Of a stretch of DNA of 64,000 bases, positions 53,777-57,607 are shown in pieces. Source of the DNA: a phage. The translations under genes were made by a program, and so were the position numbers. Below the pieces are notes generated by a model that was not told the origin of the DNA, searched no databases, and saw only the letters and a program-made list of their open reading frames with translations. Each line of letters starts with the position of its first letter. The stretch's first letter is position 1. The stretch lies in NCBI GenBank assembly GCA_025677605.1, contig GCA_025677605.1_4110.1; one strand, given 5' to 3'.

Positions 53777-53974
53777 TTACTTCCTATATATAAGCATTAA
53801 GATATAGTAGTACTGATTGTACTGTACATTCTCTAGAACAGGAGAAGGGTCTATTGCTATATTAGTACATTTATTAAATTCATATCGAGTCATTGGTAGA
53901 GGGATTAGAGCGTTAATCCATACTTGTTCATTCTCTTTGAGTTTACTTATATAGAATTCTTTATGGTCATTCAT
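53777..53974 (-). CDS. YKEFY-family small protein
   Basis: start moved to MNDHKEFYISKL; C-terminal LMLIYRK. Confidence 0.5.
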   Translation of the reverse strand: MNDHKEFYISKLKENEQVWINALIPLPMTRYEFNKCTNIAIDPSPVLENVQYNQYYYILMLIYRK

Positions 53975-53975
53975 A

Positions 53976-54167
53976 TTAGTGTCTGTATATAAGTAATAGT
54001 AAGAATACGTACTGCACCTGTTCATCTTTAGTATTGAGTACTGTACGTATTGCGTCCTTAAACAAGAATATAGAACTTGGGTCATGGGAATTTAAAGGGA
54101 TTACGGGGACGGCATCTTTGTAGTTCTCTTTAACAAATTGTTTATAGTATTCTTTATAATTATCCAT
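53976..54167 (-). CDS. YKEFY-family small protein
   Basis: 63 aa MDNYKEYYKQF...LLLLIYRH. Confidence 0.55.
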   Translation of the reverse strand: MDNYKEYYKQFVKENYKDAVPVIPLNSHDPSSIFLFKDAIRTVLNTKDEQVQYVFLLLLIYRH

Positions 54168-54360
54168 AGATATATACTAGCAACATTAGGTTAGAGTATA
54201 GTGCTTTAGTGTCATCTTGTTCTAGAGCTTCAATTGAGTTCGTTGTAGCTTTCCTAAAGCCCATTTTTGCGTATGCACTTTTTGGATTAACGGGGGCGGC
54301 GGCTTCGCACCAGATTCTTTCGGTGCTTGATAGTTTACTCATATAGAATTCTTTATACAT
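54160..54360 (-). CDS. YKEFY-family small protein
   Basis: 66 aa MYKEFYMSKL... Confidence 0.55.
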   Translation of the reverse strand: MYKEFYMSKLSSTERIWCEAAAPVNPKSAYAKMGFRKATTNSIEALEQDDTKALYSNLMLLVYIYG

Positions 54361-54361
54361 A

Positions 54362-54544
54362 TTAGTACCTGAATATTAGCATTGTTATGTAGTACAGCAT
54401 ATATGGATTGTCATCGTATATTAGGGTGTACTTAGTACATTGTTGGAACATTATCTTTGCGTGATCTTTTATTCCTATTGGTTCTGTTGGTACAAGGTGT
54501 TGGAGATGCATTGGGAGATGATCTTTATAAAATTCTTTATACAT
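54362..54544 (-). CDS. YKEFY-family small protein
   Basis: 60 aa MYKEFYKDHLP...MLIFRY. Confidence 0.55.
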   Translation of the reverse strand: MYKEFYKDHLPMHLQHLVPTEPIGIKDHAKIMFQQCTKYTLIYDDNPYMLYYITMLIFRY

Positions 54545-54552
54545 ATTAGTCC

Positions 54553-54741
54553 TTAGTACTGGAACGCGAGATACAGAGTGTGGTACAGTTGCACTTGAGA
54601 ATTGTTTTCATTAAGTACTTGTTCAGTACATGTGCGGAAGTAATCAGCTTCGTATATACAGTTAATATCGCGAGGTTCATCTTCTAATAGATTGCCTTGT
54701 AGAAACTTTGGTAGTTCTTTTATGTAGTATTCTTTATGCAT
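54553..54741 (-). CDS. YKEFY-family small protein
   Basis: 62 aa MHKEYYIKELP...YLAFQY. Confidence 0.55.
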   Translation of the reverse strand: MHKEYYIKELPKFLQGNLLEDEPRDINCIYEADYFRTCTEQVLNENNSQVQLYHTLYLAFQY

Positions 54742-54750
54742 ATGATTTCC

Positions 54751-54939
54751 TTAGTACACGAATGCGAGGTACAGGGTGTGGTACAGTACTCGATGATAGC
54801 TATCATAATCTTGTATACATGCTTTAGTGCACATAGTAAAGTACTTTTTATCGTTTTGTGCATTGATACCGCGAGGTTTATCTAATAGATTAGTTATGAG
54901 GTACATTGGGAAATATTTTGTGTAGTATTCTTTGTGCAT
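54751..54939 (-). CDS. YKEFY-family small protein
   Basis: 62 aa MHKEYYTKYFP...YLAFVY. Confidence 0.55.
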   Translation of the reverse strand: MHKEYYTKYFPMYLITNLLDKPRGINAQNDKKYFTMCTKACIQDYDSYHRVLYHTLYLAFVY

Positions 54940-54940
54940 A

Positions 54941-55123
54941 TTAGTACCTGTATATAAGTGTTAGTACATTGTACAAGTTATAGATATCATCTTCATTTAT
55001 TGCAGATTCTGTTTGATATCGGTAGAATATAGTTTGGCTTTTATCTTTGAAATCTACAGGTTTTTGGGGAATAAGTTTTTGGAGATCTATTGTAAGTTTA
55101 CTTACGTAGTATTCTTTATACAT
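54941..55123 (-). CDS. YKEFY-family small protein
   Basis: start moved to MYKEYYVSKL (ATG 55121-55123). Confidence 0.5.
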   Translation of the reverse strand: MYKEYYVSKLTIDLQKLIPQKPVDFKDKSQTIFYRYQTESAINEDDIYNLYNVLTLIYRY

Positions 55124-56005: not shown

Positions 56006-56185
56006 TTATATAGAGATTAGTTTCAGTACTTCTCTGTACGTGTACTTTTCGTTTTGTGCTTCTACTGTACATGATAGCAGGTATCGTTTTTTATCTCTTT
56101 TGTTCCCGACTGTGTAGTACCTTTGGAATTGATTATAGATGTATCTATCTTTGTTCTGGAGTTTATAGATATAGAATTCTTGCAT
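56006..56185 (-). CDS. LEYY-subtype small protein (below ORF-track cutoff)
   Basis: 59 aa MQEFYIYKLQNKDRY...YREVLKLISI. Confidence 0.4.
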   Translation of the reverse strand: MQEFYIYKLQNKDRYIYNQFQRYYTVGNKRDKKRYLLSCTVEAQNEKYTYREVLKLISI

Positions 56186-56193
56186 AGTGTACC

Positions 56194-56373
56194 TTAGATA
56201 GAAATTAGTTTCAGTACTTCATTATATGTGAACATTTCGTCCTGTGCCAATTTAGTACAATTCAGGAGTAATTTTCTTTGTTTTCTTTGCGAACTACAAT
56301 GATAGCTCATTGAGAAGTAATTGAAGCCGTATCTATCTTCTGGGTAAATTACGCTTAGGTAGTATTCTAGCAT
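56194..56373 (-). CDS. LEYY-subtype small protein (below ORF-track cutoff)
   Basis: 59 aa MLEYYLSVIYPEDRY...YNEVLKLISI. Confidence 0.4.
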   Translation of the reverse strand: MLEYYLSVIYPEDRYGFNYFSMSYHCSSQRKQRKLLLNCTKLAQDEMFTYNEVLKLISI

Positions 56374-56381
56374 TGTATTCT

Positions 56382-56567
56382 CTACATTTCAATAAGTTTA
56401 AGTACTGCTCTGTACGTGTACTTAGTTGTTAGTACTTCTTTTATAGCAGTACAGAAGTAATGTTGTTTGTCTCTTATACTGCCGCGTTTGTAGTACCATA
56501 CATGGGAGTTGTGGCTGTACTTGTCTCTGTCGGATAGTTGTTGGTAATAGTAGCTTATATGATTCAT
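56382..56567 (-). CDS. LEYY-subtype small protein
   Basis: 61 aa ...YRAVLKLIEM. Confidence 0.5.
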   Translation of the reverse strand: MNHISYYYQQLSDRDKYSHNSHVWYYKRGSIRDKQHYFCTAIKEVLTTKYTYRAVLKLIEM

Positions 56568-56776
56568 TGTAATGTAATTAGCCTTACTATATTAAAGTAC
56601 TCGGTCCCTGTTGCACCTTGTAGAATATTACGCACGACATGTTTGTGGTGCAGGATGATTGCTGAAGGTGCGGTTCTTTTAAGTTTTTTAAAAGTACTGA
56701 ATTCTTGTTTAAGTATGAACTGTACATCTTTAGGGAGAATATCTATGTAGTACTGATGAATGTTTGTAATTTTCAT
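56564..56776 (-). CDS. small protein in YKEFY array
   Basis: 70 aa MKITNIHQYYIDILP... Confidence 0.45.
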   Translation of the reverse strand: MKITNIHQYYIDILPKDVQFILKQEFSTFKKLKRTAPSAIILHHKHVVRNILQGATGTEYFNIVRLITLQ

Positions 56777-56787
56777 ATAGTACCTTT

Positions 56788-56979
56788 TTAGAACTTAAAG
56801 ATGAGGTACATGATAGATAGGTACTTAGTTGAAGTAAATGGTTGTTCTATTGCATAACGTGTCTCCAACCTGAAATCGTAATTATAAAAGGGACTATTCT
56901 TTCTCATAGGTTCTTGAGGGAATGAGTCCCTGTATTGTTCGTGTAGTTTACTACAGTAGAAATCTTTATGATTATTCAT
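56788..56979 (-). CDS. YKEFY-family small protein
   Basis: 63 aa MNNHKDFYCSKL... Confidence 0.55.
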   Translation of the reverse strand: MNNHKDFYCSKLHEQYRDSFPQEPMRKNSPFYNYDFRLETRYAIEQPFTSTKYLSIMYLIFKF

Positions 56980-57181
56980 AGAAGTATATTAGTCCGATTA
57001 AACTTGAGTACTGCATATTTTTGTTATTGCATTCAATAGCTTCTAGAGTACTACGTATACAATTATTAAAGCAATTCCTTGTGTTGGGTGTGTCTATACT
57101 TACAGGTGGTACACTCCTTAGAAACATTTGTTCTTCGTTGCTGAGGTATTTGGTGTAGAATTCTTTATGTTCAGTATTCAT
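56972..57181 (-). CDS. YKEFY-family small protein
   Basis: 69 aa MNTEHKEFYTKYL... Confidence 0.55.
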   Translation of the reverse strand: MNTEHKEFYTKYLSNEEQMFLRSVPPVSIDTPNTRNCFNNCIRSTLEAIECNNKNMQYSSLIGLIYFYE

Positions 57182-57182
57182 A

Positions 57183-57383
57183 TTAGTACTCCAATAGTAG
57201 TGTTAAGATGAAATAGTACTGCATACTTTCGTTACCTTCTATTGCATTCCAGATGAGGTTATTCCTGTTTGAGTTCAGGAGTCCTGGTATGCGTTTAGCA
57301 TTTTTCAGTACTGTTTTTTGGTTCTTCATTGCATCTTGTAGCCCAGGGTGCAATGCATTGATGTAGTACGGGTTAATGTTCAT
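57183..57383 (-). CDS. small protein in YKEFY array
   Basis: 66 aa MNINPYYINAL... Confidence 0.45.
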   Translation of the reverse strand: MNINPYYINALHPGLQDAMKNQKTVLKNAKRIPGLLNSNRNNLIWNAIEGNESMQYYFILTLLLEY

Positions 57384-57607
57384 ATAGCCACTAGTACTAA
57401 GATGTTTAAAAATTGTTTACGGGTATCCCCTAATAGTGTATTGTGTACAATGCTCACAGTAAGGGTATTCAGTGCACTACCAAGCATAAGGTTACACCCT
57501 GTGCTCTTATGATTTTTTAGTTCAATTAGCCACGATTGGTCAGAGAGAACCTTTGCGTACTCTAGTTCATTTAGTTCATTGATGTAGTACTTTAGAGCAT
57601 ATGGCAT
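57380..57607 (-). CDS. small protein in YKEFY array (first gene)
   Basis: 75 aa MPYALKYYINEL... Confidence 0.45.
   Translation of the reverse strand: MPYALKYYINELNELEYAKVLSDQSWLIELKNHKSTGCNLMLGSALNTLTVSIVHNTLLGDTRKQFLNILVLVAI

Follow-up and report, generated by a model that had tools for sequence, protein, structure and literature searches.

The locus considered here raises the question of what is encoded by an unbroken run of short open reading frames (ORFs) on the minus strand, at positions 53777-57607 of the 64,000-nt phage contig GCA_025677605.1_4110.1; this whole stretch is referred to below as the window. The initial annotation had seen in this run a diversified family of 17 tandem paralogs of two alternating sub-types. 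The window was found to come from a jumbo coliphage of the genus Asteriusvirus (121Q/PBECO4 group), and we are confident that the run forms a 17-gene operon specific to Asteriusvirus, in which 16 genes appear to belong to one superfamily of 59-75-residue proteins. The best overall explanation, a tentative one that falls somewhat short of probable, is an early-expressed operon of small binders of host or defence proteins. Megablast with positions 53700-57700 matched 36 phage records, all of them Escherichia/Salmonella jumbo phages of the 121Q/PBECO4 group; the closest was Escherichia phage A4 (97% identity), and the other records were 80-90% identical. In these records, the ORFs of the array are entered as consecutive "hypothetical proteins", for example gp249-265 of 121Q and gp540c-548c of phAPEC6.

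The minus-strand ORFs tiled the region from 57607 down to 53777 without a break, 16 of them being small (59-75 aa) and one 223 aa long, and all 17 genes start with ATG. Intergenic distances ranged between -8 and +11 nt, except for the 28 nt ahead of the 223-aa gene. A ribosome-binding site (AGG, TAAGGA or AAGGAG) was observed in approximately half of the genes, and the others overlap or adjoin the upstream stop codon; an AGG or TAAGGA within or just past the last codons of one gene doubles as the ribosome-binding site of the next. Two starts in the ORF list were over-extended, the likely ones being 53974 (MNDHKEFY) and 55123 (MYKEYY), which lie 1 nt past and overlap by 8 nt the respective upstream gene. 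The translations contained the N-terminal (K)E[FY]Y motif and the C-terminal LxLI[YF]RY, YLAFQY and VLKLISI motifs previously ascribed to this run, and the three 59-aa ORFs reported at 55816-55995, 56006-56185 and 56194-56373 were present. These features fit a tightly packed operon that is read as a polycistron and conserved across the genus. In the order of transcription, its features are as follows.

57633..57661, minus strand: operon promoter, sigma70-type, with -35 TTGACA at 57661-57656, a 17-nt spacer and -10 TACTAT at 57638-57633.
57380..57607, minus strand: gene 1, 75 aa, tentative member (subgroup D), the most hydrophobic product, with a grand average of hydropathy (GRAVY) of +0.23.
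57183..57383, minus strand: gene 2, 66 aa, subgroup C, matching the subgroup A profile over its full length (E = 2.6e-4).
56972..57181, minus strand: gene 3, 69 aa, subgroup A (phrog_11711).
56788..56979, minus strand: gene 4, 63 aa, subgroup A (phrog_11711), fast-evolving.
56564..56776, minus strand: gene 5, 70 aa, subgroup C.
56382-56567, minus strand: gene 6, 61 aa, subgroup B.
56194-56373, 56006-56185 and 55816-55995, minus strand: genes 7-9, 59 aa each, subgroup B.
55116..55787, minus strand: gene 10, 223 aa, phrog_29152, outside the family.
54941-55123, 54751-54939 and 54553-54741, minus strand: genes 11-13, 60-66 aa, subgroup A.
54362-54544, 54160-54360, 53976-54167 and 53777-53974, minus strand: genes 14-17, 60-66 aa, subgroup A.
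53480..53776, no strand: short non-coding spacer 3' of the last gene, holding the inferred edge of the terminal repeat at approximately 53,533.

Membership was determined with a hidden Markov model (HMM) of the family, a search that the initial annotation had proposed. Among 963 six-frame segments of the window, exactly the 16 small ORFs of the array scored E <= 1.1e-11, and the next match had E = 0.076; with such a gap, the pattern is far beyond chance. The 223-aa gene gave no match to this HMM, and the member count is therefore 16 instead of the 17 first given. A fused family domain at the C-terminus of this gene was considered and rejected for the same lack of a match. In every array examined (loci L001-L006, L008 and L009), the B block precedes this gene and the distal A block follows it; no match to it was found in Pfam, NCBIfam or the Protein Data Bank (PDB).

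BLAST clustering of 122 members from the window and six related phages gave six subgroups. Four are represented in the window (nine members of A, four of B, two of C and one of D), and E and F were found in the relatives only. The subgroups do not alternate, as had been stated, but lie in blocks in the order D-C-A-A-C-B-B-B-B-(223 aa)-A x7, and the same block order was observed in seven genomes with 15-21 members each. Two further loci carry 20 and 22 members, and the copy number of B in related phages varies from 2 to 6.

By sequence comparison, the unity of the family appears graded. Subgroup A is firmly joined to E and F (hhalign probabilities 96-97%), C is clearly linked to A (81%), and B and D are weakly linked (43% for A-B and 22% for C-D). 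With profiles built by leaving one group out, every C member outscored all 2,200 shuffled controls; median scores were 9.2 bits for B and 8.4 bits for D against a shuffle mean of 1.0-1.4 (standard deviation [SD] 1.5-1.8), placing both approximately 4-5 SD over the mean, with the best shuffle beaten sometimes by B and never by D. The weak link of gene 1 (D) to subgroup C had an HMM E-value of 5.6e-4 in addition to the 22% given above. Seven of the nine A genes were scanned against PHROG profiles and all matched phrog_11711 end to end (E 1.6e-7 to 1.7e-27), five of them (53777, 53976, 54160, 54362 and 54553) being in the distal A block; the two remaining A genes cluster with these in the BLAST analysis. 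The B, C and D genes had no PHROG match in the same scan. Thus, only subgroup A is catalogued, as phrog_11711 with no function label, and the wider 16-gene superfamily and the operon are uncatalogued.

Short genes of no known function could be spurious or decaying ORFs in duplicated filler DNA, and two of the genes in the array, with a ratio of nonsynonymous to synonymous substitution rates (dN/dS, ω) near 1, would agree with this. The initial annotation had made the family depend on in-frame conservation in related genomes, and the frames were found to be conserved: all 122 copies from the window and the six related phages are intact ORFs, as are the 20 and 22 members at the two further loci, so that nine genomes or contigs have 15-22 intact copies each. 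Comparison of the window genes with their best orthologs (Nei-Gojobori) gave a pooled dN/dS of 0.34, with most genes at 0.1-0.3; the two near 1 were 53976-54167 and 56788-56979, and the latter (gene 4) had ω of 0.68-1.0 against more distant orthologs. In 206 reciprocal-best ortholog pairs, ω was 0.18 at 17 conserved core columns and 0.42 at 45 variable columns; blanket positive selection was sought with these column-wise values and was not seen. Together with the confident fold predictions and the conserved promoter and ribosome-binding sites described below, these values largely refute the view of the run as non-functional ORFs. The diversified family first described is therefore real, its genes being conserved in frame with dN/dS below 1 and its paralogs 13-51% identical, although the number of members and their supposed alternation were not upheld.

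The orthologs scored for dN/dS were 63-100% identical. Since paralogs are far more diverged than orthologs, most duplications are old and each paralog has been preserved separately; more recently, copies have been gained and lost chiefly in B and in the distal A block. The superfamily has thus grown by old tandem duplication with continuing copy gain and loss. Fractions of identical codons were 0.74 in the N-terminal, 0.53 in the middle and 0.46 in the C-terminal part, near the expectation from codon usage, indicating that the terminal motifs are conserved as protein. Gene conversion, or a constraint from the ribosome-binding sites at the gene junctions, was also considered as the source of the terminal motifs and was rejected, the synonymous codons not being homogenised.

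Structure prediction, also proposed in the initial annotation, was carried out with AlphaFold2 in independent runs for subgroups A and B and gave a confident four-helix model for each. The A model (54553-54741; 46-sequence family alignment) had a predicted local distance difference test (pLDDT) score of 87.7 and a predicted template modelling (pTM) score of 0.71, with helices at residues 3-7, 12-20, 29-44 and 48-60. The B model (56006-56185), made from B sequences only, had a pLDDT of 84.9 and helices at residues 2-7, 11-26, 29-44 and 49-58. The order of the four helices is the same in both models and helices 3 and 4 nearly coincide, so that A and B are each predicted to be a small four-helix domain. 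Most of the conserved columns belong to the N-terminal (K)E[FY]Y, the F..CT of helix 3 and the C-terminal Y..L.LI, and the conserved hydrophobic and aromatic positions would form the core. Non-core positions differ among paralogs, as does net charge, with isoelectric points (pI) from 4.5 to 10. The motif L-S-x-K-D-R in subgroup B had suggested sigma region 4 or a helix-turn-helix (HTH); this was rejected, no match being found in Pfam or NCBIfam and the predicted helix geometry not being that of an HTH. The family as a whole matched nothing in Pfam or NCBIfam, nor did a PDB sequence profile search give a match; Foldseek against the PDB returned nothing at E <= 0.001, and a fold search of BFVD returned family members only.

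The C-termini of several products are hydrophobic or aromatic (LYHTLYLAFQY, LLLLLIYRH, ILVLVAI), and gene 1 has a semi-hydrophobic segment of approximately 23 residues in addition to its positive GRAVY. Such ends could serve as anchors if the products were small proteins acting on membranes, with a role such as superinfection exclusion or the timing of lysis. We regard this as very improbable, because the hydrophobic stretch is just 10-13 residues or so and is modelled as the fourth helix (48-60) of a compact, confidently predicted domain, while most members are net hydrophilic (GRAVY -0.25 to -0.96) and no signal peptide is present.

A promoter had been anticipated near 57610-57670. In 57608-57673, the sole sizeable intergenic region upstream of the operon, the sequence TTGACA-17-TACTAT was observed at 57661-57633, with an A-rich, UP-like tract upstream and AAGGAG 8 nt ahead of the first ATG. 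Both hexamers, the core of the spacer with its palindrome CAGTACTG (57642-57649) and the ribosome-binding site were invariant in eight Asteriusvirus phages, in which the flanking coding DNA is approximately 80-85% identical. No terminator-like site was found on the minus strand inside the array. The conserved promoter, the lack of an internal terminator and the tight packing support, and do not prove, a single polycistron dependent on host RNA polymerase; judging from the promoter, the array is probably switched on early by this enzyme. Two promoter-like sites were seen inside the array on the minus strand, TTGGCA-18-TATAAT at 56,221-56,250 (11/12 consensus positions) and TTGAAA-17-TAGAAT with a TG at 56,364-56,392; each may be an internal promoter or a chance occurrence. 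An Rfam scan of 51.5-58 kb gave only a sub-threshold match to a C/D-box snoRNA (sR17), which was taken as chance.

The palindrome is not confined to the operon promoter. CAGTACTG, often as TTCAGTACTGAA, occurs in 58 copies in the window against 0.82 expected, most densely at 52,260-53,551; AAGTACTT has 29 copies and TAGTACTA 13, and the palindrome is frequent in all related loci too. Palindromes are usually avoided by phages. Five other strong sigma70-like promoters, situated in the terminal repeat (53125, 43877, 40616, 35897 and 33601), carry CAGTACTG in the same position of the spacer, and the one at 53146-53119 on the minus strand has 12/12 consensus positions; at six sites, the palindrome fills the spacer just before the sigma70-like -10 as AAGTACTTGACA-N8-CAGTACTGTATAAT. 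The palindrome may therefore be an operator for some regulator, and regulation of the operon together with downstream genes is supported, although unproven, by this shared arrangement. A literature search on the palindrome returned only unrelated, non-phage papers.

Beyond the last gene, at the start of the terminal repeat described below, 1.7 kb (52,045-53,776) has no convincing gene. It contains 10 copies of CAGTACTG and other short repeats, among them approximately 14 tandem 8-bp units (ATCTAGCC-like) at 52,584-52,743, and looks like an origin or regulatory region. The minimum of the cumulative GC skew falls in this non-coding region. On the plus strand, the GC skew turns from negative to positive at approximately 54 kb, a point that coincides with the repeat boundary instead of the divergent promoter at 57.64 kb, and the array genes thus carry a reversed synonymous-site composition: at four-fold sites A is 0.47 and T 0.26, T exceeds A in all other gene sets, and the GC3 skew is -0.31. 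The reversal fits a replication-linked strand bias with a putative origin at approximately 53-54 kb and the array transcribed toward it. With such a region adjoining the array, its products might be DNA-associated proteins, that is, small regulators or architectural proteins binding the AGTACT-core palindromes, the origin-like region or the adjacent genome end. The palindromes, the 8-bp tandem repeat and the position of the skew minimum favor this, as does a pI above 8 in 57% of the 122 members; in phage G, an expansion of a small zinc ribbon to approximately 35 copies was proposed to supply transcription factors or DNA binders (PMC7824862). Nevertheless, no HTH, zinc-binding or other DNA-binding signature was found with Pfam or NCBIfam, and the pI ranges down to 4.5, with 20% of members acidic; a DNA-associated role is considered unlikely, although it is the most plausible of the alternatives weighed here.

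The position of the array was determined by comparison with phages whose ends are known. Direct terminal repeats in Asteriusvirus are approximately 21 kb long: phage fEgEco12 has one of 20,993 bp, confirmed by restriction digests (PMC13070987), and phage Sharanji one of 20,668 bp (PMC11895373). Since nt 54 of fEgEco12 aligned to position 53480, the left terminus of that phage places the repeat boundary at approximately 53,533 in the window, some 245 bp past the last gene. In fEgEco12 itself, 353,438 is the last position of the array, and the lengths of the record and the repeat give a start of the right repeat at approximately 353,741. In the six records long enough for both repeat copies, the array lies approximately 20-21.6 kb from the right end, indicating that no other unique segment separates the operon from the right terminal repeat, toward which it is transcribed. 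The other edge of the repeat may be at 32,000-32,500, as suggested by a step in G+C content near 32 kb from approximately 0.33 to 0.37-0.40.

On the other side of the array, across an intergenic region of approximately 65 nt, are divergently transcribed RCC1-like genes. Five consecutive paralogous genes of 310-408 aa occupy 57,674-63,456 on the plus strand, and their counterparts in relatives bear the annotation RCC1-like or DNA-condensation protein; the N-terminal MLPFVRM(F/L)(K/E)YGN is common to the first two, and a stretch of approximately 85 bp of fEgEco12 (intergenic DNA plus gene start) matches at 57.7, 58.6, 59.8, 61.0, 62.3 and 63.5 kb, a spacing of approximately 0.9-1.3 kb. An attempt to relate the number of RCC1-like paralogs to array size in each phage was dropped, the count of tblastn "places" being uninformative. 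The RCC1-like family has been linked to tail whiskers (PMC5259590), and RCC1-like gp549 and gp551 are among the virion proteins of phAPEC6 (PMC7247149). As both families are multi-copy and diverge from one intergenic region, the array could encode proteins that help to assemble the tail and head whisker fibres or act as adaptors for them. This is hardly likely, for three reasons. The array promoter is of the sigma70 type, whereas the fibres are virion (late) proteins. No array product (gp540c-548c) is in the mass-spectrometry list of phAPEC6 virion proteins, although small proteins can escape detection (PMC7247149). Finally, in the Klebsiella phage fENko-Kae01, of the sister group, nothing separates the RCC1-like genes, which extend to 340,038, from the annotated repeat beginning at 340,370, and the family HMM finds no match in this phage; this junction indicates that the array is an insertion specific to Asteriusvirus and that whiskers do not require it.

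The family is narrowly distributed. Of 5.8 billion proteins, 30 were matched in a profile search; when 1.84 billion cluster representatives were searched exhaustively with HMMER, 28 clusters were returned, all of 59-69 aa. All named matches were from Escherichia/Salmonella phages except one protein labelled E. coli, the unnamed ones being from metagenomes. In tblastn, the matches of the most divergent representative were confined to phages with genomes of 311-386 kb, one of Salmonella and the others coliphages, and several of these are Asteriusvirus phages already in the megablast list. A 168-kb metagenomic contig had the array in the same context. In the literature searched, no description of the array or family, of its promoter or of its position at the junction of whisker genes and terminal repeat was found.

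From these results, the following course of events is proposed for the binder operon. Host RNA polymerase would read the single sigma70-type promoter to give one polycistronic early transcript, running from 57.64 kb toward the terminal repeat, in which each gene would be served by its ribosome-binding site or by translational coupling. The products would be soluble intracellular binders with paralog-specific surfaces, each paralog being kept for its own partner, and together would make up a host-takeover or anti-defence set that probably works on host or defence proteins early in infection. Taken separately from the expression of the operon, the functional part, namely that the products are early-acting binders of host or defence proteins, is a possibility that we hold with some doubt. 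Its most specific form, a genus-specific battery of orphan-fold effectors at the head of an early block, in which one four-helix scaffold is reused and each paralog neutralises a different host or defence protein, is less likely still. The conserved block order and tight coupling of the genes would also suit a "split solenoid", in which the products are subunits of a single hetero-oligomeric assembly of the helical-repeat type and gene order and coupling provide matched stoichiometry; the chance of this is very small.

Several points weigh against the binder operon. The action of the paralogs on host or defence proteins is something we infer, and the PDB sequence and fold searches returned no characterised inhibitor among their matches. 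The variable columns are under purifying and not positive selection, unlike the classic arms-race signature. A simple promoter scan of the array region found 28 sites against 29.2 in shuffles, that is, no excess, and since neither a transcriptome nor interaction data for an Asteriusvirus were found in the literature, early timing comes from the promoter sequence alone. Subgroups B and D appear to join the family weakly, as described above, and small helical models make fold searches weak, so that an existing relative could be missed.

Comparison with known systems gave partial likenesses. The SPO1 terminal-redundancy module and the T5 pre-early region are host-takeover or pre-early blocks at the ends of phage genomes. 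In the related Rak2-like phage CBB, RpoD-like promoters before short hypothetical genes and in the terminal repeat were read as marking an early host-takeover region (PMC5259590). The array resembles these blocks (SPO1, T5 and CBB) in consisting of small ORFan genes, with strong promoters of the host type, that lie at a long terminal repeat or adjoin it; it differs in lying just outside the repeat and in containing paralogs of one fold instead of unrelated genes, and its early timing and host targets are putative. Like anti-CRISPR and anti-defence clusters, it encodes small, fast-diverging tandem proteins of narrow taxonomic range behind one promoter and with no recognisable domains. Such clusters usually combine unrelated proteins with an HTH regulator (Aca), whereas the 16 proteins of the array are homologous, an HTH gene is lacking and the orthologs evolve under purifying selection. 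The internal-protein (IP) locus of T-even phages likewise has tandem small genes with a conserved N-terminal motif followed by variable sequence. T-even IPs are packaged and have a capsid-targeting signal that is cleaved off; in contrast, the N-terminal motif of the array proteins is the predicted first helix of the domain, and none was detected in the phAPEC6 virion proteome. For 121Q and phage G, a tandem array of >30 genes has been reported (PMC5646251), and the present array is similar to such expansions in jumbo phages (PMC5646251, PMC7824862) in that tandem duplication is a route to genome growth. The array is best described as a tandem family confined to one lineage, which encodes small and presumably early phage proteins of an orphan predicted fold.

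Phage therapy is a potential use of the 121Q/PBECO4 jumbo phages, in which >80% of the genes have no known function. The operon offers a clean, tractable unit, with one promoter, 16 related proteins of approximately 60 residues and a defined landmark between whisker genes and terminal repeat. Should host or defence factors prove to be the partners of these proteins, a single scaffold would have yielded many new small inhibitors, and the operon would show how giant phages gain early functions by tandem duplication; otherwise, the array would still serve as a clearly bounded case of lineage-specific gene expansion. The family is robust, yet nothing about it has so far been mechanistically surprising. 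Elsewhere in the window, a very long run of back-to-back ORFs of approximately 110-215 aa was observed on the minus strand at 1-26,000; by the family HMM, it bears no relation to the 60-aa family.

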